From the IMG/VR virus record IMGVR_UViG_2529293148_000011: a DNA stretch of 9,637 bases; one strand, 5' to 3'. How positions within the stretch are numbered: the first letter of the stretch is position 1; each line of letters opens with the position of its first letter. The position numbers and the translations under genes were made by a program. The notes under the pieces are model-generated. The model did not search any database and was not told the origin of the DNA. It saw nothing but the letters and a program-made list of their open reading frames with translations. Below, piece after piece: positions 1-9,637 of the stretch. The stretch is from a virus (taxonomy: Duplodnaviria > Heunggongvirae > Uroviricota > Caudoviricetes).

Positions 1-54
1 CCGTCGCCAGTTGTCGTTGGTATTCTGCAACTGGCGCGTTCCGGAGTGATAGCC

Positions 55-324
55 ATGAGCGAACAGTACCTGATAACGCTCGACGAGTGGAAACCAAAAC
101 GGTTCAGTCTCCCAATAACAAACACTACCCTGGTGAAATACGGAAAACTAGGATACATCGTTCCAAGACCACAAAAAATTCGTGGGCGTTGGCTGATAGA
201 TCGCCGGGCAGTATTTGTTGGACCTGGTGAAACGGGAATTGCGCCGGAAATTCATACTGGCGATGATGATGCACTGAAGGAGATTTTAACTCATGTCACC
301 GAGGCCACGAAAAAACAGCACTGA
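55..324 (+). CDS. xis: Excisionase (Xis-like, lambda/e14 type)
   Basis: ATG at 55 preceded by GGAG at 43-46. N-terminus MSEQYLITLDEW resembles lambda Xis MYLTLQEW. Small basic protein directly upstream of int, overlapping it by 32 nt as in lambda. The frame is open back to the window edge, so a longer upstream start (track uses GTG at 46) cannot be excluded. Confidence 0.75.
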   Translation: MSEQYLITLDEWKPKRFSLPITNTTLVKYGKLGYIVPRPQKIRGRWLIDRRAVFVGPGETGIAPEIHTGDDDALKEILTHVTEATKKQH

Positions 325-1411
325 CGTAACCGGTCTTTACGAAAAGTTTGATCGCAGAACTGGCAGGGTTTACTACCAGTATAAAAACCCTGTGACTGGA
401 AAATTTCACGGTCTCGGAACAGACAAAGGCAAAGCAGAAAAAATCGCTTCCACAGCCAATCAGCGAATAGCTGCAGCAGAAGCTGAATATTTCATGCGCA
501 AAATTGATGAAAGTCCGTCAGCAACAAAACGTCGGGGCATCAGATTAAAGGCATGGGTTGATCGATATCTGAAAATACAGGACGCGCGACTGAAAAATGG
601 AGATATTGCAGCTACAACTCACAAAGAAAAAACTCGAATGGCTGCATACCTGGTTTCCCGTCTGGGAAACCACCCATTGAAAGAACTGGAAGTAAGAGAC
701 TTTGCATTAATACTGGATGAGTGGCTGGATAAAGACATGGTCAGCACAGCGAGAGTAAATCGTGGATTATGGGTTGATATTTATAAAGAAGCACAGCATG
801 CAGGGGAAGTTCCTCCTGGATGGAATCCTCCGGAGGCTACCCGTAAACCGATCCCTAAAGTAACCAGAGCCAGGCTCACCATGGAAGACTGGCAAAAAAT
901 TTACAATGCAACGCCTGAAAAACACTTTATCCGTAACGCAATGCTTCTTGCGATTGTTACTGGTCAGCGCCGTGATGACATTTGCCACATGCGTTTTTCA
1001 GATGTGTGGAACGAACACTTGCATATCACCCAGGGAAAAACCGGAATGCGTCTGGCGTTACCGCTTACACTACGCTGTGATGCCATTGGGATAACGTTAA
1101 AAGAAGTTATTGATGGGTGCCGAGACAGAATATTAAGTCCATATCTAATCCATAGTCGGCACCAGAAACAACCGAAGCCGATGAGTAAAGACAACCTGAG
1201 CGACTACTTTGCCAAAGCACGGGATCTGGCTGGGATAATTCCACCAGCAGGAAAAACTCCGCCAACATTTCATGAACAACGCTCTCTATCAGAACGGCTG
1301 TACCGTGCACAGGGTATCGATACAAAAACATTACTAGGGCATAAAGTCCAGGCAACCACCGATCGCTATAACGATACTCGAGGTCAGGAATGGGTTAAGT
1401 TGGTTATTTGA
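293..1411 (+). CDS. int: Tyrosine site-specific integrase, lambda Int family
   Basis: 372 aa. C-terminus HEQRSLSERLYRAQGIDTKTLLGHKVQATTDRYNDTRGQEWVKLVI parallels the lambda Int catalytic region (H-x-x-R, LLGH, Y) as recalled. AAGGAG lies upstream of the ATG at 293. Resembles e14 IntE from memory. Confidence 0.95.
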   Translation: MSPRPRKNSTDVTGLYEKFDRRTGRVYYQYKNPVTGKFHGLGTDKGKAEKIASTANQRIAAAEAEYFMRKIDESPSATKRRGIRLKAWVDRYLKIQDARLKNGDIAATTHKEKTRMAAYLVSRLGNHPLKELEVRDFALILDEWLDKDMVSTARVNRGLWVDIYKEAQHAGEVPPGWNPPEATRKPIPKVTRARLTMEDWQKIYNATPEKHFIRNAMLLAIVTGQRRDDICHMRFSDVWNEHLHITQGKTGMRLALPLTLRCDAIGITLKEVIDGCRDRILSPYLIHSRHQKQPKPMSKDNLSDYFAKARDLAGIIPPAGKTPPTFHEQRSLSERLYRAQGIDTKTLLGHKVQATTDRYNDTRGQEWVKLVI

Positions 1412-1510: not shown

Positions 1511-1629
1511 GGAAAAAATTGAATAAATTCAAAATCCTGAAAGTGTCCCGCCTTATGAATAAGAAGGTGAGCGAATTAGATGATTAATCCTTTATATTCA
1601 ATGCATTAAGTTTGTTTTTGAGTGGTTTT

Positions 1630-1782: not shown

Positions 1783-1818
1783 CACTTCAAGCACAAAATA
1801 TCATCCCTGCGCCGTTGA

Positions 1819-2049
1819 TTACTCTGCAGGTGAAGTCGGCCACTCAATATCAGGTGCAGTTGATGTATCAACACGATTCAACAATACCCGATATTTATTC
1901 CATGCCTCCAGCAACGATCTTTCTTCCTCCTTTGCGATTTCCAGATCTACAGCATCCTGCAGTGGCGCAATATACTCACTGAATTCCTGGGTGTAGAACT
2001 GTGTGGTGACGGTCTTCCAGCCATTCGGCTCCTGCTGTATCGAAGCATA
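1819..2049 (-). pseudogene. tfa: Tail fibre assembly protein (lambda Tfa type), 3' fragment without a start
   Basis: The - strand translates as ...[53 protein letters not shown]-stop, matching the conserved lambda/e14 Tfa C-terminus. The frame is closed by TAG at 2050-2052 with no ATG or GTG, so only about 77 codons remain. Not in the ORF track because it has no start. Confidence 0.7.
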
Positions 2050-2141: not shown

Positions 2142-2810
2142 ATGGTGAAATTAATGAAAAAAAACACAGATGATGGGGCTAAAATTTACACACCACTTAC
2201 CCTAAAGCTTTATGACTGGTGGGTTTTGGGAGTATCAAATCGGCTTGCATGGGGATGTCCTACAAAGGAATACCTTCTTCCACACTTTCTGGAACATTTA
2301 GGTAACAACCATCTGGATATTGGTGTTGGAACTGGGTTTTACCTTACTCACGTACCTGAGAGTAGTCTGATATCTTTAATGGATTTGAACGAAGCTAGCC
2401 TGAACGCGGCATCTACAAGGGCTGGGGAATCAAAAATTAAACATAAAATTAGCCATGATGTTTTTGAACCTTATCCCGCGGCGTTACATGGTCAATTTGA
2501 TTCCATTTCCATGTTTTACCTTCTTCACTGCCTGCCTGGAAATATATCTACAAAAAGCTGTGTAATACGCAATGCGGCGCAGGCCTTAACTGACGATGGA
2601 ACTCTATACGGAGCCACAATTCTTGGCGATGGAGTTGTGCACAATAGCTTCGGTCAAAAACTGATGCGCATTTACAATCAGAAAGGCATCTTTTCAAACA
2701 CAAAAGATTCCGAAGAAGGCTTAACGCATATACTCTCAGAGCATTTCGAGAATGTTAAAACCAAGGTTCAAGGTACTGTAGTAATGTTTTCCGCTTCAGG
2801 GAAAAAATAG
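2142..2810 (+). CDS. Class I SAM-dependent methyltransferase (small-molecule type), likely cargo/moron gene
   Basis: Motif I LDIGVGTG and a post-II-like FDSISMFYLLHCLP. No DPPY/NPPY or PCQ DNA-methyltransferase motifs. The ATG at 2154 has a better SD (GGTGA at 2144-2148) than the ATG at 2142. May correspond to e14 YmfD, but that is an unverified recollection. Confidence 0.8.
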   Translation: MVKLMKKNTDDGAKIYTPLTLKLYDWWVLGVSNRLAWGCPTKEYLLPHFLEHLGNNHLDIGVGTGFYLTHVPESSLISLMDLNEASLNAASTRAGESKIKHKISHDVFEPYPAALHGQFDSISMFYLLHCLPGNISTKSCVIRNAAQALTDDGTLYGATILGDGVVHNSFGQKLMRIYNQKGIFSNTKDSEEGLTHILSEHFENVKTKVQGTVVMFSASGKK

Positions 2811-2864: not shown

Positions 2865-3191
2865 TTACTCCATGACAGGGTTCGTAGGCCACTCAATATC
2901 AGGTGCAGTTGATGTATCAACACGATTCAGCAACACCCGATACTTTTTCCAGGCTTCCACCACCAGCACGACAAGATGCCGCATACAGTGACCCAGTCAG
3001 TCCAGTTTCCAGACAACCAGTGCGTCACCTTTTTGAAGGCGCTTTAAAGCACGTTTTAATCCAGGTCGGCCTGTCCTTGTTCCGCTTTATTTATCTTCAA
3101 ATATTTGTTCACATCCTGCACAAACAAGAGCGTTTCGTTGCAGGTCTGTATTCTGGTCATTTGTTGATACCCTTACATAACCAATCAGCAC
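2865..3191 (-). pseudogene. pin: Serine DNA invertase (Pin/Gin/Hin/Cin family) N-terminal remnant fused to a tfa 3' end; two in-frame stops
   Basis: From GTG at 3191..3189 (SD GGGAGA upstream) the - strand reads VLIGYVRVSTNDQNTDLQRNALVCAGCEQIFEDK[84 protein letters not shown]. The first ~77 codons match the invertase N-terminus including the catalytic-serine region. Stops are TAA at 3089..3087 and TGA at 2999..2997. The last ~31 codons are a Tfa C-terminus. Confidence 0.75.
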
Positions 3192-3245
3192 ACTGAATCT
3201 CCCGTCCAAAAGCGCAAATCATGCCATGCAGGCCGGATACGGCCA

Positions 3246-3271
3246 TTATCTAAAACCTCGGTTTACAGGAA
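3246..3271. other. Din-family invertase crossover site (gix/pix/hix-like): TTATCTAAAACC TC GGTTTACAGGAA
   Basis: Two 12-bp half-sites, TTATCnAAAACC and GGTTTACAGGAA (reverse complement TTCCTGTAAACC), around a 2-bp core; this fits gix as recalled. It sits 55 bp upstream of the pin start and abuts the orphan fibre segment. Confidence 0.6.
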
Positions 3272-3649
3272 ACGGTAAATCAGGCTTCTGGCGCATTACA
3301 GAAAAACCAGAACGGTGCAGATATTCCGGTAAAAGATACCTTCACCAAAAATATTGGTGCCTGCCGCGCATATAGAGCATGGCTGAATATTGGTGGCGAT
3401 AGTCAGATCTGGACAACCGCGCAATTTATTTCGTGGCTGGAGAGTCAGGGGGCATTTAACCATCCTTACTGGATGTGCAAAGGCTCATGGGCTTATGCAA
3501 ATAATAAGGTTATTACAGATACAGGTTGCGGAAATATTTGTCTTGCAGGTGCTGTGGTGGAAGTTATTGGCACTCGCGGCGCAATGACCATACGCGTTAC
3601 TACTCCGAGTACGTCCTGCGGCGTCTGTCGCCCATTTTTCCGAAAATAA
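3254..3649 (+). pseudogene. Orphan variable C-terminal segment of a tail fibre protein (Sv-type, Mu/P1/e14-like), no start codon
   Basis: A 132-codon open frame starts inside the crossover site: NLGLQETVNQASGALQKNQNGADIPVKDTFTKNIGACRAYRAWLNIGGDSQIWTTAQFISWLESQGAFNHPYWMCKGSWAYANNKVITDTGCGNICLAGAVVEVIGTRGAMTIRVTTPSTSCGV... This Gly/Trp/Cys-rich sequence is characteristic of invertible-segment fibre tips as recalled. A TAA at 3251-3253 inside the site closes the frame upstream. Confidence 0.5.
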
Positions 3650-3788
3650 ATGCTCCGACAATACGTGCCACATAACCTGCACCGTAGGTTCCCATTGCCA
3701 GAATTAACGCCATTGCCGTTGATGATTCAGGAAAAAATATTTCATGAAACACTAACGCTGCGCCGAGCGAATATAACTGGAAACCCAT
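3600..3788 (-). pseudogene. N-terminal fragment (TM1-TM2) of an MFS metabolite:H+ symporter-type transporter
   Basis: 62-aa ORF MGFQLYSLGAALVFHEIFFPESSTAMALILAMGTYGAGYVARIVGAFIFGKMGDRRRR... resembles the N-terminus of ShiA/ProP-type MFS proteins (ALVFNREFFP...FGHFGDRLGRKR in ShiA as recalled). An in-frame TGA lies immediately upstream of the Met, and the ORF ends inside the fibre-tip segment, so only about 60 codons of a roughly 430-codon gene remain. Confidence 0.45.
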
Positions 3789-4008: not shown

Positions 4009-4584
4009 TTATTGCGTAACGTCAAACGCTCGGATTGAGCGTAAATCATCAAGATTATTCAGTTCTTCCTTCATCTCCCGCTGACGCTGATAAATCTCGT
4101 TATTGCGATCGACCTGTGCCTGCGCCATTGCTGTCGCCAGTTCTTCCAGTTCCGGCATTGACAGTTTCACCTGTTGATTATCGGCATCACCCCATGCAAG
4201 GGCGGTTAGTGCCGTATCAGATTTCGCCGCCATTACTACCGGATAAAGACGGGCCATTGAGTCGGGGCCAGCGTTCCAGGTGCGACCGTTCCATTCAAAG
4301 GTGAACGGCAGTGCTTCCTGTTCTGTGCGCCATGCCTCGATTTCCTGCTTTTTGGCATCCTTCGCCGCGGCGATAAGTTCCGGCGTGACAGTGAAAGGGG
4401 CGATTTCGCCCCATTTGCCGTTCTGCAACTCTTCCCAGATGCGCTGGCCTGTCGGTGCGGTATCATCCTGCATGGCGGTATACGGGACGAATTCCGTTTC
4501 ACCTTCAAATAACACCTCGCAGTCAACCGCACCATTTTCAAGATAATGGGCGTTTCTGATGCCCTTTACCGCTCTGATTTTCAT
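4009..4584 (-). CDS. tfa: Tail fibre assembly protein / chaperone
   Basis: 191-aa ORF starting 13 nt after the stf stop, with SD GGGGAA. Size and position immediately 3' of the side tail fibre gene match Tfa-type chaperones. The C-terminus lacks the [16 protein letters not shown] motif, so it is a different Tfa subfamily from the two remnants. Confidence 0.7.
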   Translation of the reverse strand: MKIRAVKGIRNAHYLENGAVDCEVLFEGETEFVPYTAMQDDTAPTGQRIWEELQNGKWGEIAPFTVTPELIAAAKDAKKQEIEAWRTEQEALPFTFEWNGRTWNAGPDSMARLYPVVMAAKSDTALTALAWGDADNQQVKLSMPELEELATAMAQAQVDRNNEIYQRQREMKEELNNLDDLRSIRAFDVTQ

Positions 4585-4597
4585 GTTTTATTCCCCG

Positions 4598-6721
4598 TTA
4601 CTCGATGCGCACAAACAGGCAGATACGACCGGTTATTCCTTTAGAGTCCCTGACCCCGGATAGCGCCATATAACGCCCCGGGAAAGTGTACCCTGTAGCT
4701 CCTGCACTCGGTGCGGAATTGTAGGAGCCAACCCCAGGAGAAGATATTAAGCACGAAAGATTAACTCCGCCCAGTTGTGACCCCTGCACCACATCACCCA
4801 GGCCAATATTGATTTCTTTATCCCCGAAAGTTGTTCCGCGATAAACAGCCAGCACTGGAACACCCACTGCCGGGTATTTGAAATATGAGCCTGAGCCCGC
4901 CGTCCTGGACAGCAGGAAGGCCAGCGAATCGCCGTCGTAAATAATGGGGCTTACTGTTGCATTCCAGTTGTTTCCACTAAAGCGGTAAGTCAGGAAATGA
5001 ATACTATGCTCACCTTCGTAATACTGGTTAAAACACAGCAGTGTTTTGAATTTGCGTATTGTGTCCGACTCATCGTTATCAAAGGGCGACCACATCACAT
5101 CAATGATGCCGTTAAATTTCTTGGTGCCTACCAGCAGCATGGAAGAATCCGCAAGACTGACCGCATAACGCCCCGGCGTGGCCACTTTCAGCCATTCAAC
5201 AAAATCGGCCTGCCCGTTAAATGTCAGGGCTTCGGTGCTGGCAAATGCCTGACCGAACCCATGCATACCGGACAGTGCCAGCCTGCCCGGTGCGCGGTCG
5301 CGGATATAGCTCTGGGGTTCCATCGTAGCAGCAGCTTTCAGTCCAAGCTCCGTGCGCATGTCTCCAGGCGTGTTTCGTGACAGTAATAAGCGAGCCTTGT
5401 TGCTGCATGGAATTGCTTTTGCCTCAAAGTTATCACCAAAATAAAGGAGAGAGTTTTGTCCCACCCCTACCTTGCTGATATTGGTTAACGTATTGTTAAG
5501 CGGCTGTTTACCTGCCAGTGCTTTAGTAACCGTTGTCGCAAAGTTCGGGTCATTGCCCAGCGCTGCTGCCAGCTCGTTCAGCGTGTCCAGGGCTTCCGGT
5601 GACGAGTCAACCAGCGCAGCAAGCAGTTTGCGAACAAATGCCGCGTTCGCTGTTTCCAGACCGGCAGCATCGTCCGGTGGGGTTGGTGTGGTGGGTGTGC
5701 CGGTGAATGCCGGGCTGTCCAGCGGCGCTTTTGTTTTCGTCTCGTCCATGACGGTTTTGACGGCTTTTGGTGTGGCTGCCAGTTCCTCGCTGTCGTTGTC
5801 TGTATCACTACAGAGTTGCACCAGGCCTTTTTCTGTTGTGGAAGCATTGCTTCCCTTCAGGTCATCAACAATCCGTTGCGCCTCGTCCCTGTGCTGTTTC
5901 GCTTCCTGCGCATTGCCTGCGCTCGCATCCTGGCTGGCCTTCGCCTGCCGGGCGTATTCGGCAGCGTTATTTTCATGGCCCAGCGCAACATTTGCCGCAT
6001 TTTCTGCACTGGTCGCAGCCAAAGATGCTGCTTCCTTATACTGACTGGCGCGTCCGGCTGCATCAACCGATTCATTCCGCGCTGCCCCTGATGCCTGAGC
6101 ACTGTTTTCTGCCTCATTCGCAAAACGCTCTGCGTCATCACGGGCCGTTTCGGTTGCTGTCACATCCTGTGCAGTCTGTTGTGCGCTTCCGGCTGCATTA
6201 TCAGCGTGACTTTTTGCGTTCTGCTCGCTTTTTGCAGCCGCTTCGGCGCTCTGCTGTGCCTGATTTTTCAGCTCTTCTGCCTTATTTTTACTGTCAAGAG
6301 CAGAGGTCGCTGCGTTTGTTGCTGTATCCGCTGCCGACTCTGCTCTTTTACGGTCATCAGTGACCTGCTCTGACTGCCGGGTAACTGCATCCACCATTTC
6401 CTCAAAACGCTTCATCACCTCCGGACGTAAATCACCATCCTTTGGTGCATCCAGAAACGCGTTCAGTGTCCCAGGTGTGTCAGTCGGTGCCACATAAATA
6501 TCCCCGACACGGGTTGGCTGCCAGCCGTTACGGTTAAGCGCAACCTCGTAATACCCCGGCTCAGCCTCAATCACATAAGCACCGTTATTGTCCGTCACAC
6601 AAGTGGCGACAACGTGTGCCACAACGGTCGGACTGGTTCTTCTGGCCCGCAGTTCAATCGCACAATTTACGACAGGCTTACCCGCCCCGTCTTTCAGCAC
6701 ACCTGAAATCTTTACTGCCAT
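4598..6721 (-). CDS. stf: Side tail fibre protein (lambda Stf-like)
   Basis: N-terminus MAVKISGVLKDGAGKPV matches lambda Stf. A long Ala/Ser/Gln/Glu-rich shaft is followed by LAATPKAVKTVMDETKTKAPLDSPAFTGTP...LNELAAALGNDPNFATTVTKALAGKQP, a conserved Stf region. The likely start is ATG 6721..6719 (GGGG SD); the track's GTG at 6727 is two codons upstream. Confidence 0.9.
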   Translation of the reverse strand: MAVKISGVLKDGAGKPVVNCAIELRARRTSPTVVAHVVATCVTDNNGAYVIEAEPGYYEVALNRNGWQPTRVGDIYVAPTDTPGTLNAFLDAPKDGDLRPEVMKRFEEMVDAVTRQSEQVTDDRKRAESAADTATNAATSALDSKNKAEELKNQAQQSAEAAAKSEQNAKSHADNAAGSAQQTAQDVTATETARDDAERFANEAENSAQASGAARNESVDAAGRASQYKEAASLAATSAENAANVALGHENNAAEYARQAKASQDASAGNAQEAKQHRDEAQRIVDDLKGSNASTTEKGLVQLCSDTDNDSEELAATPKAVKTVMDETKTKAPLDSPAFTGTPTTPTPPDDAAGLETANAAFVRKLLAALVDSSPEALDTLNELAAALGNDPNFATTVTKALAGKQPLNNTLTNISKVGVGQNSLLYFGDNFEAKAIPCSNKARLLLSRNTPGDMRTELGLKAAATMEPQSYIRDRAPGRLALSGMHGFGQAFASTEALTFNGQADFVEWLKVATPGRYAVSLADSSMLLVGTKKFNGIIDVMWSPFDNDESDTIRKFKTLLCFNQYYEGEHSIHFLTYRFSGNNWNATVSPIIYDGDSLAFLLSRTAGSGSYFKYPAVGVPVLAVYRGTTFGDKEINIGLGDVVQGSQLGGVNLSCLISSPGVGSYNSAPSAGATGYTFPGRYMALSGVRDSKGITGRICLFVRIE

Positions 6722-6732
6722 ATTCACCCCAC

Positions 6733-6785: not shown

Positions 6786-7397
6786 TCAGAACTTATAACC
6801 GACACCCACGATGAAACCGTCAGTGCGCCAGTCACCACTGCCGGAGCCTTCATAAGCAAGGTCAATAGTCACCGTTTCTGCCGGGCTGAACTGAAGACCC
6901 GCACCCCATGCCAGCGACAGGTGTCGTGCGGTATAGCCATCACTGGCGGTGGTCGTCTCCTTCACATACCCCGGTTTCAATTCATCACGTCGGTAATCCT
7001 GAACACTGTCAGACCAGCGGGTGTAAGCCATCCCAGCCGTGCCATAGAGACTGACCTGCTCACTGACCTGCCAGACAGGGCCGGCCATCAGACTCACATA
7101 ACGACCGCGCAGGCTTTCATAATGGAGCGTATTTTCACCCGTCTTCATCGTGTCGCTTTTTTTCGCCGACGCATAACTCAGCGAAACAATACCACCCGCA
7201 TGGTCCGTGAATTCATAACGGTATTTCACGTTAATCCCTTTTAAATCACCTGTACGGGCACCGGTACCGGACAATGCCGGCACGCCGCCCGGGTGAACCT
7301 GAGCATATCCCACGGAAAACGCACCGTGTCCGACTTCAGCCTGCGCAGGAAGGGCCATTCCTGCCAGAAAAGCGACAAAAAATAAAATATGGCGCAT
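6786..7397 (-). CDS. lom: Lom-like outer membrane protein (Ail/Lom/PagC family)
   Basis: 203 aa with a signal peptide (MRHILFFVAFLAGMALPAQA). The body and C-terminus (LAYEGSGSGDWRTDGFIVGVGYKF) closely match lambda Lom as recalled. SD GAGAGG precedes the ATG. Confidence 0.9.
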   Translation of the reverse strand: MRHILFFVAFLAGMALPAQAEVGHGAFSVGYAQVHPGGVPALSGTGARTGDLKGINVKYRYEFTDHAGGIVSLSYASAKKSDTMKTGENTLHYESLRGRYVSLMAGPVWQVSEQVSLYGTAGMAYTRWSDSVQDYRRDELKPGYVKETTTASDGYTARHLSLAWGAGLQFSPAETVTIDLAYEGSGSGDWRTDGFIVGVGYKF

Positions 7398-7421
7398 GAT
7401 TACCTCTCGTTTTCAGTCAAT

Positions 7422-7445
7422 AAAAAAGGCACCGCTTCGGGTGCC
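7422..7445 (-). terminator. Rho-independent terminator between J and lom
   Basis: On the - strand: GGCACC-CGAAGC-GGTGCC stem-loop followed by TTTTTT, 20 nt 3' of the J stop. Confidence 0.55.
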
Positions 7446-7464
7446 CCTCCGGGTTAATAAATCG

Positions 7465-9637
7465 TCAGCTGATACTGATTCCTGCCGTGGATTTTTTCAT
7501 GACCACCACCAGTAAATCGCTGATGTACGTTGTCGGCGTCCATTTGTTCGCGCCGGTCGACGACACATTAAACGTCAGGGTGACATGACCCCGTCCTGCC
7601 GGCATATCTATCACCGATGAGAACACCCGGCTGACATCCGTTGCCGGTTCATGGAAAATCTCAGCCCCGTTTTTAAACACCTGCAGCTTGCAGGTGGAAT
7701 ACCAGTATGACTGTTGGTTATGACTGTTGAAATTCTGGTGTTTCGTACCACGAAATAATACCGGCGGAATGATAATCTGCCGGTCGAATCCCTGATCATC
7801 ATAAACCGTGACGGTTATAGTGCCACTGGCATAACTTCCATTTCGCGGGAAAGCCTTACCCACCGTTTTGACAATATCGCCTTCAATCTGGCTGGCTGAC
7901 AGTTTTCCAAGGATCCGGCAGTTCTGATTAATCGTGACGTTGTTGAGCGTCCCGGAATTCGCATTCACGTTACCGCTGATATCAGCATTTCTCGCCGTCA
8001 GCCGCCCGTCCGGTGTCATGGAGAATGCCGGAGGATTACCGGATGACGTGATGCTCACCGCAAATAGTCGCTTCAGGAACACGTCGTTCATGAACAGCTG
8101 ATTCCCCTGCGCCACAAACAGCGGCGTGGTGTTACCGTTCTCCGGGGTAATCATCGCAATGCGATCGGCCTGCAGCAGAATGTTACTCAGGGTCTGACCA
8201 TCAACATCCTCAATCCCTGCACCAATACCGGCCACATAGGGAATACCGTTTTTTGTTTTCTGCACCTTCAGCATATACATGGCATTCAGCTCATTGCGCG
8301 TGTCTGACTGAACCCGCTGGATTTGCTGTATGGTCACGGCCTGGTCACCCAGCTTTTTATCCGTGGTCGAGGTAATTTCACTCCCTTTTTTATCCACGTA
8401 CTGGCGGACCTGTGCTATCTGTCGGGCGTTTTCTGACTGCCCCTGGCTGACAGTCTGTGAGATTTCACTGCTCACCCGGTCCACTTTCTGGTTCACCTGC
8501 GCGATGGCCAGTGCCTGGTCCTCATTCTTTTTCGCAACCAGCTGCGTGAGAGTGTTTTCCGCCTTCCCGATTTTCCGGGTCACTTCTGCGATATCCGTGT
8601 CCATCCGCTGACGGATGTCTTCTTCCAGTTGCGTGACCTCCGTACGCAGCGCTGAAGCATCAATGCGCTCTTTCAGTGCCTGACCAAGAAGCGTCTCATC
8701 TATCAGCCCCCGGAAAATTTCCAGATACCCTTCACCATCATTGCTGGGCTGCCCGCTGGCTTCCACAAAAGCAGATTTTCCCACCAGGTTGACGCTTCGC
8801 ACGTAAAACCAGAAATCCGTCCCCGGCTTAATCCGGCTCCCCTGGACAGTCCACTGACTGCCGGCCCCCAGATAACGGGCAGATTTTTCCACCTGTGCTG
8901 TGTTCGTGATGCGTTTTTCTGAGAACCAGAATTCAAACTGTACCGTCGGGTCATACACCGCAAGACGCGGGACCGCCGTTATCTGAAAATACCCCGGCGT
9001 CAGCTCAATGGTGGCGGGTTTTGCAGGTGCGTTAATCCGGAAGGTGGTGGTGGCAGGATCGCCCTGCTGTCCCCACGCATTTACCGCCCGGACTGTCAGC
9101 CTGTAGTTCCCCAGCGCCAGTTGTGTGAAGCGGTAAGTGGTTTCCGTCGTCCGGGCCGTGCTGACCAGCCGCTCACTGCCGTCATCCGCTGTTACAGTCA
9201 GGCGAAGCAGGAAGCTCACGCCCTTCACCACCTTCGGCGTGTCCCAGCGGGCCAGTACCTGATACTCCCCGCTGTCTGCAGTGACTTCGGCAGTCAGGTG
9301 CTGCACCGCTGGCGGCGTGACACCATTCACCGTGCCGCTCTGGTCGCCGTCAAAGTGCGCCCCGTTATCCACGATGGCTTCTTTTTCCGGTACATGCTGC
9401 ACGGCAGTGATGGCATGCGTGCCGTCATCGTTCTCACGAATACTCACACAGCGGAACAGGCGCTGGCGCAACGTCGGCAGCTTCAGCCCCCATACGCTGT
9501 ATTCAGCAACACCGTCAGGAACACGGCTCACTTTTACCTTCACGCCGTCGGTGACGGACTGAACCTCCACGCTGACCGGATTGCCACTTCCGTCAACCAG
9601 GCTTATCAGCGTGGTACCGGAGGATGGCAGCGTGATT
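7465..9637 (-). CDS. J: Host specificity / central tail fibre protein J (C-terminal ~720 codons; 5' end lies beyond the window)
   Basis: The frame is open from the window edge (9637) to the stop at 7465. A long beta-rich protein immediately upstream of lom-stf-tfa, as in lambda. The C-terminus ...[14 protein letters not shown] is in the receptor-binding region. Confidence 0.9.

Follow-up and report, generated by a model that had tools for sequence, protein, structure and literature searches.

The window, by which we mean the whole 9,637-nt stretch of phage DNA analysed here, contains the 5' part of a Gin-type invertase gene, a single gix crossover site, the beginning of a Mu-type fibre segment reading out of that site on the opposite strand, and a piece of the host gene ydfJ, with a methyltransferase gene on one side and a set of side-fibre genes on the other (Table 1). 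A sequence-only reading had recognized three parts of a Din-type inversion module at this place, namely an invertase gene (3191 down to 2865), a gix-like site (3246-3271) and a fibre C-terminal segment (3254-3649). All three exist, far beyond what chance would give, but two of the three ranges turned out to be wrong at one end, and in both cases the misread end belongs to a different gene.

Table 1. Features of the window that bear on the inversion module and its setting
Feature	Position	Strand	Description and basis
xis-int	46-1411		On one side of the att core, with the b region on the other
att core (end of potB)	1556-1569		14 bp, TGAATAAGAAGGTG; attL/attR comparison
Second tfa 3' fragment	1816-1992	-	
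Class I SAM methyltransferase gene	2142-2810	+	
tfa 3' end (TfaQ/lambda-Tfa-type)	2865-2962	-	Last ~27 codons and stop; Pfam Caudo_TAP
Gin/Pin-type serine DNA invertase stub	2957-3191	-	Codons 1-~79, GTG start; Pfam Resolvase, Mu gin identity
Nonsense codon 65 (CGx to TGA)	2997-2999	-	Common to the RefSeq-annotated gin'-tfa copies examined
Nonsense codon 35 (TTA to TAA)	3087-3089	-	Private to the window's sub-lineage
Equivalent of the Fis-dependent recombinational enhancer	3102-3173		Invertase nt 19-90; 72/72 identical to Mu gin
Spacer, invertase start to site (former gin promoter region)	3192-3245		13/54 positions differ from Mu
gix crossover site	3246-3271	+	TTATCTAAAACCTCGGTTTACAGGAA; 25/26 against Mu gixL and gixR
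S' (Sv') variable fibre part	3254-3623	+	First 123 codons; tblastn, Mu alignment
Captured host ydfJ	3624-3788	-	First 55 codons of the truncated gene, 165 bp; K-12 ydfJ match
DUF4376 chaperone	4009-4584	-	Pfam DUF4376
stf side-fibre gene	4598-6727	-	Pfam phage_tail_N, Phage_fiber_2

The window is arranged as an attP, being attL-like up to the core and attR-like from the core onward. Its integrase is the one that adjoins potC-potD in hundreds of assemblies, and the sequence from 1556 onward is found as a potB prophage, 99.99% identical, in several draft E. coli genomes; an IMG/VR contig of 45.4 kb (IMGVR_UViG_2534681703_000014) matches the window at 99.9-99.99%. In one piece, the whole window occurs in 0 of 5,426 complete E. 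coli genomes and in no deposited phage. The fossil sits in the non-essential b region of a lambdoid (lambda-like) temperate E. coli phage that integrates at potB/potC. To the left of the stub, the methyltransferase gene is flanked by two tfa 3' ends (1816-1992 and 2865-2962), an arrangement that we take to be that of tfaD-ybcY-tfaX in DLP12, and in phage PhiR29_2 a whole tfa and stf adjoin the same methyltransferase gene. To the right of the ydfJ fragment lies a prophage end of the Qin-site type, made up of a dinI-like fragment, the DUF4376 chaperone, stf, lom and J. The genes at 4009-6727 are the phage's working side-fibre set, which is of a different type and stands outside the module.

The frame from 3191 down to 2865, previously taken as one invertase gene, is a chimera of two genes in which an invertase N-terminus is joined in frame to a tail-fibre-assembly C-terminus. 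The invertase assignment holds from 3191 to about 2957: the translation matches Pfam Resolvase through its residues 3-84 (E=3.8e-21; profile positions 2-92 of 145) and the PHROG family 'DNA invertase' (E=1e-33), confirming the similarity to serine invertases, and Mu gin is identical to the stub at 185 of 191 nt, or 96.9% over codons 1-64. The remainder, 2962-2865, which amounts to the last third of the supposed invertase gene, is tfa. Its residues 79-105 match Caudo_TAP (E=4e-12) at profile positions 104-130 of 131, which is the C-terminal end only, the C-terminus of TfaQ aligns with the 27 residues of the translation, and in relatives the corresponding DNA bears the RefSeq name 'tail fiber assembly protein, missing N-terminus'; it is a fragment and not a gene. 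A direct repeat of this tfa end, 90% identical, lies at 1835-1913, and about 4-5 nt of microhomology are found at the join between gin and tfa. Within the stub, codons 1-64 are Mu-gin-like and codons ~65-79 are identical in DNA to e14 pinE and unlike Mu gin, indicating that gin and pin sequence had already been combined in the parent invertase gene. A complete serine invertase comprises about 185-196 aa, of which only residues 1-~79 are encoded here; they retain the active-site motif YVRVSTNDQ, and the frame encodes neither the remaining catalytic domain nor the E helix nor the C-terminal helix-turn-helix/DNA-binding domain. The invertase had been called inactivated, and it carries TAA at codon 35 and TGA at codon 65 and is cut at codon ~79.

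The stub also contains the stretch that corresponds to the recombinational enhancer, an element with two Fis sites in Din-family systems, whose coordinates we transferred from the P1 record, where the Cin enhancer is annotated at cin nt 19-90. The enhancer-equivalent sequence is intact, and judged by its sequence it may have kept enhancer function; together, the surviving gix and the enhancer-equivalent would be predicted still to bind Gin and Fis. Among dead copies of the gene, 1 of 72 positions varies in the enhancer-equivalent stretch as compared with 4 of 145 elsewhere in the stub. Counts as small as these give no sign of selection on the enhancer, the sparing being short of significance.

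The site itself is a 26-bp imperfect-dyad crossover site of the gix/cix/pix/hix type, as had been proposed. In phage Mu, gixL and gixR each match it at all positions but one, and it aligns with gix, P1 cix and e14 pix on the pattern TTATC.AAAACC..GGTTT...GAA. It is the sole copy in the window, where 0 are expected by chance at up to 3 mismatches (200 shuffles). The distance of 55 bp to the invertase start, given correctly by the sequence-only reading, is the same as that from pix to pinE in e14. By homology with the P1 cix annotation, the putative crossover point is the TC dinucleotide in the centre of the site (3258-3259). The spacer between site and invertase start is 75.9% identical to Mu, as against 96-97% on both of its flanks. 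That a single site is visible is borne out as well, since no further one occurs in the window at up to 7 mismatches; none was found in the 20-kb loci of near-identical prophages or in the 21 kb scanned of the 45-kb contig IMGVR_UViG_2534681703_000014. The queries were the window site, the stf-side site, pix and cix (each at up to 7 mismatches) and a degenerate core pattern. A core-like 12-mer in lom (6966) was dismissed as a second site on account of its unrelated flanks. The window's own stf was similarly rejected as the missing constant part, as it is of another fibre type and carries no site at the homologous boundary; with 12 of 26 positions mismatched in the best alignment, the neighbouring stf has no pairing site, in line with the earlier statement that the fibre segment has no constant part to join.

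Reading out of the site, the fibre fragment matches parts of known invertible segments, with protein identities by tblastn over 3254-3623 of 96.7% to P88, 95.9% to D108 S', 91% to P7 Sv and 71.5% to P1 Sv'. In Mu, S' residues 9-131 of 329 align with the 123 codons of the window, 118 of the 123 residues being identical, and the DNA identity between the two is 96.3%. The fibre segment inferred earlier is accordingly real up to 3623 (about 96% to the S' of D108, P88 and Mu) and ends there: identity to both Mu and the prophage relative L001 described below breaks off at this position, and from 3624 to 3649 the 'fibre' frame, its stop codon included, runs through antisense ydfJ DNA. Nor does the segment reach the C-terminus. 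It represents the first 123 of about 319 variable-part codons (~38%), at the site-proximal end, and the distal ~196 S' codons, which hold receptor specificity, are absent, as are U', U, Sv, the second gix and the constant part. What had been called a 'fibre tip' is a site-proximal part without the receptor-binding C-terminus, and no tip. The first start codon of the S' frame does not come before 3473. Beyond the junction, K-12 ydfJ is identical to the window fragment at 170 of 177 nt, and the encoded peptide is the N-terminus of YdfJ. The gene ydfJ codes for an MFS transporter and is the attachment gene of Qin-type prophages; the junction at 3623/3624 shows no microhomology, and the open reading frame that spans S' and ydfJ is indexed in 60 blocks of assemblies. 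The presence of a ydfJ piece in a potB-integrating phage is the footprint of an earlier exchange with, or of aberrant excision from, a ydfJ-site prophage.

Complete versions with two inverted sites, which the sequence-only reading had suggested looking for, were found in related genomes. Four lambdoid prophages of ETEC, integrated at ompW or potB, carry the gin'-tfa chimera with TGA65 and two sites (L001, in E. coli 504239 at ompW; L002, in E. coli 504838 at potB; L021 and L022), and they keep the full 3.0-3.2-kb segment Sv'-U'-U-Sv. Their second, inverted site (TTATCGAATACC...) lies in frame inside an stf that is different from, and longer than, that of the window. A P2-like prophage of E. 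coli 99-3165 (L024) has the same two sites and an intact 196-aa invertase, and a remnant at the lambda att site (L023) has the same chimera and one site. In L001, L021, L022 and L023 the RefSeq annotation shows a 'recombinase family protein' of 64 aa, and the CDS of L002 stops at the same position. The chimera with its TGA65 is present at three att sites, these being ompW, potB and lambda att. Both orientations of the segment occur among the two-site relatives, as seen between L001 and L022 and in counts of 133 versus 5 genomes.

The prophages L001 and L022 deserve separate description, as they are near-clonal, their two flanks, of 6,928 and 2,931 bp, showing a single mismatch each. Their 3,241-bp segment lies in opposite orientations, and both have the same 64-aa dead stub, so that the segment appears to have been flipped after the invertase had died. 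The outer half-sites have not moved, and the exchange accordingly falls within 6856-6907 (L001 coordinates), from site position 9 to the first internal difference. An invertase acting in trans could be responsible for this flip, as could RecA-dependent exchange in the 89-bp inverted repeat. Inside the segment, a 1.2-kb patch with 53 mismatches indicates that recombination with another copy also took place. L002 and L021 were considered as a second clean inversion pair and rejected, the prophages having diverged (92-95%) and one cassette being different.

In the G segment of Mu, the C segment of P1 and the P segment of e14, Gin dimers bind two inverted 26-bp gix sites and are activated there by a Fis-bound enhancer that lies inside the 5' end of gin; after inversion the constant fibre part is followed by either Sv-U or Sv'-U', and host range is thereby switched. 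This mechanism is supported by Kahmann et al. (1985) and by Johnson and Simon (1985), both as listed in PMC3798978, and by the P1 record. Over 3001-3623 (623 bp), the window and Mu gin(5')-gixR-S' share 94.7% DNA identity. The Mu G segment (gin, gixL/gixR, S/U and S'/U', including D108, P88 and SfMu) shares ~95% DNA identity with it over gin codons 1-64, the site and S' codons 1-123, and the order and orientation of Mu are kept, the invertase reading away from the site and S' out of it. The Pin/Gin type assigned earlier can be narrowed to Gin/gix, that is, to the Mu type specifically, and Pin can be dropped. Of a Mu module of roughly 3.7 kb, however, the window retains ~620 bp: there is one site instead of two, U', U, Sv and Sc are lacking, two stops and a break at codon ~79 interrupt the invertase, identity falls to 76% in the gin-gix spacer, and the module sits in a lambdoid phage whereas Mu is a transposable one.

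The ETEC prophages L001 and L002 have in common with it the TGA65 chimera, the gin-proximal site, the start of S' (97.5% identical) and, alongside, the methyltransferase gene between tfa 3' ends; the window lacks everything past S' codon 123 and has ydfJ DNA instead. L024 has an identical pair of site sequences and a Gin-type gene that is identical over the enhancer-equivalent stretch, but unlike the window it encodes an invertase of the full length of 196 aa, its fibre gene is of the P2 type and its two cassettes come with chaperones; its module is presumably functional. E. coli K-12 carries pinE, pinQ and pinR modules. The e14 P segment of K-12 (pinE, pix, stfE/stfP, tfaE/tfaP) has the same architecture and the same 55-bp spacing as the window, yet its pix sites differ from the window site at 8-10 of 26 positions, its fibre cassettes are unrelated at the DNA level and pinE is intact, unlike the stub; this segment still inverts (PMC4272514). 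The C segment of P1 and P7 (cin, cixL/cixR, Sv/Sv') offers a homologous site, enhancer and fibre part (91% for P7 Sv and 71.5% for P1 Sv'), although the position of the site differs, as it is upstream of the invertase gene in the window and overlaps the 3' end of cin in P1. Compared with the Din family, in which two inverted sites, two cassettes each with a chaperone and a constant fibre part (Sc) with the second site at its end are present, we find one site in the window, the 20-kb loci and 21 kb of the contig, 123 of ~319 codons of one cassette with no U'/U, and a resident stf without a gix-like site. Most defining features of the family are missing. The sequence of the site is the one that is preserved, accompanied by an intact enhancer-equivalent sequence that may still be functional, and the module should be classed as the decayed remains of a known system rather than with the functional Din family.

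We consider it highly probable that the stretch is what is left, without function, of an invertible tail-fibre segment of the Mu type (Gin/gix) in a lambdoid b region. Each of the checks put forward with the sequence-only reading came out in favour of its core. The earlier suggestion of a frozen former host-range switch is supported by the dead invertase, the single site, the lack of a constant part and the existence of two-site relatives. With no invertase, chaperone, complete cassette or constant part, and no partner site in the sequence scanned, the switch is inoperable on the evidence of its sequence, and no functional protein is expected from the remnant.

The order of decay can be proposed from shared versus private changes in a handful of loci, as distinct from a phylogeny. 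In a first step, gin would have been cut at codon ~79 by an illegitimate join, with 4-5 nt of microhomology, to the tfa 3' end near the methyltransferase gene, and TGA would have been gained at codon 65; we place these two changes earliest because both are present at three att sites, and the two-site relatives would stand at this stage. In a second step, confined to the window's lineage, an illegitimate join without microhomology would have connected S' codon 123 to 165 bp of host ydfJ. The ydfJ fragment would have brought in the tail-gene end of a ydfJ-site prophage, and the rest of S', U', U, Sv, the second gix and the gix-bearing stf would have been lost. The missing half was removed by this one illegitimate junction to captured ydfJ and not by gradual erosion. 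In the third step, TAA would have arisen at codon 35 in a sub-lineage; codon 35 is TTA in Mu, L001 and L024, and we place this change last because it is the sole difference between the window and the relative L010 across 2865-3623.

Three other explanations were weighed against that of a dead remnant. The one that survives best, although it is very unlikely, is that the switch still works, with an invertase elsewhere in the cell (PinE, PinQ or a Gin/Cin of P2-, P1- or Mu-type) acting in trans and a second site located outside the window. The elements required in cis are undamaged, at 25/26 for gix and 72/72 for the enhancer-equivalent relative to Mu, and the portion of Din-type invertase genes that is missing here is found in 3151 of 5426 E. 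coli genomes. PinQ of Qin has been reported to invert the e14 P segment in trans (PMC12529663), and L001 and L022 differ by a site-bounded inversion despite having the same dead stub. However, the search through the window, the flanking loci and 21 kb of the 45-kb contig yielded no second site, and the resident stf has none. Moreover, the sole cassette is a 123-codon fragment that ends in host DNA and has no chaperone gene, so that a flip could not give a functional fibre.

Less probable still is that the stretch is debris of a Mu-like transposable prophage that was inserted and then deleted and was never a lambdoid fibre module. Such an origin would account for the ~95% DNA identity to Mu over gin-gix-S', but in the relatives the stub, the site and S' are held in a complete segment whose other site is in frame inside a lambdoid stf, and this stf has the prophage-tail-fibre N-terminal domain. 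No Mu end, com or mom sequence is present, and invertase codons ~65-79 are of the pinE type and not of the Mu type. The same pair of sites is also found in a P2-like prophage, which argues that the cassette moves between phage types by recombination and not by Mu transposition. Least probable of all is retention of the remnant for a new role, be it as a small gin' or S' peptide or as an enhancer/gix serving as a Fis or regulatory site for neighbouring genes, since the little change seen in stub and site in prophages at three or more chromosomal sites is outweighed by the absence of significant sparing of the cis elements in dead copies (1/72 versus 4/145), an S' frame without a start codon before 3473, Rfam and promoter/terminator scans with no signal above chance, and a lineage that tolerated an extra nonsense codon and the loss of two thirds of the segment.

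Returning to the interpretation as a dead Gin/gix remnant, this is an ordinary find in so far as the system is of an already known kind; lambdoid prophages are well known to hold such pieces of invertase and fibre genes, and in the relatives their counterparts already bear RefSeq labels as fragments of a recombinase and of a tail fibre. The analysis is nonetheless of use for annotation, as it shows gin::tfa to be fused in the 'recombinase' frame and the end of the 'fibre' frame to be made of host DNA.

The near-clonal pair in opposite orientations fits recent evidence of prophage invertases acting in trans on other prophages. A further idea, which we hold to be unlikely, is that dead gin' stubs persist as a cis enhancer beside an intact gix, keeping invertase-less segments switchable by a resident Pin/Gin-type invertase, and that an unpaired gix with its enhancer could recombine with gix-like sites of other prophages. 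If this were true, an unpaired gix and enhancer could drive larger rearrangements of phages or of the chromosome. With regard to the mosaicism of phages, the locus offers a case in which two illegitimate joins and two point mutations can be placed in order from relatives, one of the two joins having carried a piece of host ydfJ into a phage genome.

Comparison of the truncated invertase gene with its relatives indicated that the dead remnant is itself composite. Codons 1-64 of the invertase are of the Mu gin type, while window positions 2957-3000 (codons ~65-79) match the DNA of pinE, the invertase gene of the K-12 prophage e14, exactly (26/26 over TATGCGGCATCTTGTCGTGCTGGTGG); truncation therefore struck a parent gene that was already a gin/pin mosaic. 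The spacer that separates the gix crossover site from the start of the invertase is the most variable stretch among the dead copies (5/54 sites), and in comparison with Mu it is only 76% identical, as opposed to 96-97% in both flanks. The same chimera of invertase stub and tfa 3' end occurs in another single-site fossil, a remnant in E. coli YSP8-1 on the bioA-ybhB side of the lambda att site (L023), where the constant fibre part has been lost beside an inserted IS1, with terminase genes directly after.

Features of the window discussed here
Feature	Position	Length	Remarks
xis-int	46-1411
att core TGAATAAGAAGGTG	1556-1569		overlaps potB end
tfa 3' fragments	1816-1992 and 2865-2962		either side of the methyltransferase gene
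Class I SAM methyltransferase gene	2142-2810
Spacer, invertase start to gix site	3192-3245	54 bp	former gin promoter region
Chromosomal ydfJ fragment	3624-3788	165 bp	junction 3623/3624 with the S' fragment (Mu-type variable fibre part)
Extra stf DNA	6064-6182	~135 bp	Ala/Gln-rich repeat region, inside stf (4598-6727)

The genes of the window stand in attP order (int-attP-b region-tail genes), and a 45.4-kb IMG/VR contig, IMGVR_UViG_2534681703_000014, matches it; near-identical copies in draft genomes, by contrast, are integrated between potB and potC. A phage genome now integrating at that site carries a piece of ydfJ, a chromosomal gene that serves as a Qin-type attachment gene. This piece joins the S' fragment without microhomology, its far side runs on into the end of a ydfJ-site prophage, and it is the footprint of host-DNA capture or of inter-prophage recombination. 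The open reading frame across the S'/ydfJ junction turns up in 60 indexed blocks of E. coli assemblies, but none of 5,426 complete genomes contains the arrangement as a whole.

The two tfa 3' fragments are direct repeats (79 nt, 90% identical), and together with the methyltransferase gene between them they form a layout that we take to be the tfaD-ybcY-tfaX arrangement of DLP12. Phage PhiR29_2 differs in that its distal tfa copy is whole and adjoins stf. The fibre gene itself also varies, as several prophages otherwise 97-99% identical to the window (e.g. L010) have a shorter stf that lacks the extra DNA, the called Stf products being 662 aa long there, as against 707 aa in the prophages nearly identical to the window, whose own ORF list gives 709 aa. 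Direct repeats of 16 nt at 6048 and 6183 bound the extra DNA, a sign that the fibre shaft is polymorphic in repeat number.

Two near-clonal ETEC strains, E. coli 504239 (L001) and WS1933D (L022), carry a prophage at ompW with flanks 99.97-99.99% identical. Both have the same inactive gin' stub of 64 aa, but the 3.2-kb fibre segment with its two sites (6847-10087 in both) points one way in the first strain and the opposite way in the second. The inversion breakpoints fall inside a 52-bp interval that includes the gix core. When the segment of 504239 is compared with the inverted one of WS1933D, the 53 mismatches are concentrated in a patch of 1.2 kb (6987-8194 in 504239) that spans U' and the distal part of S'; the segment is otherwise near-identical, and its other half has 0 mismatches. 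In one of the two genomes, this patch appears to have arisen by gene conversion with a further copy of a fibre cassette. As for the inversion, the comparison suggests that the segment was flipped after its own invertase had died, by another invertase acting in trans or by RecA exchange within the 89-bp inverted repeat.
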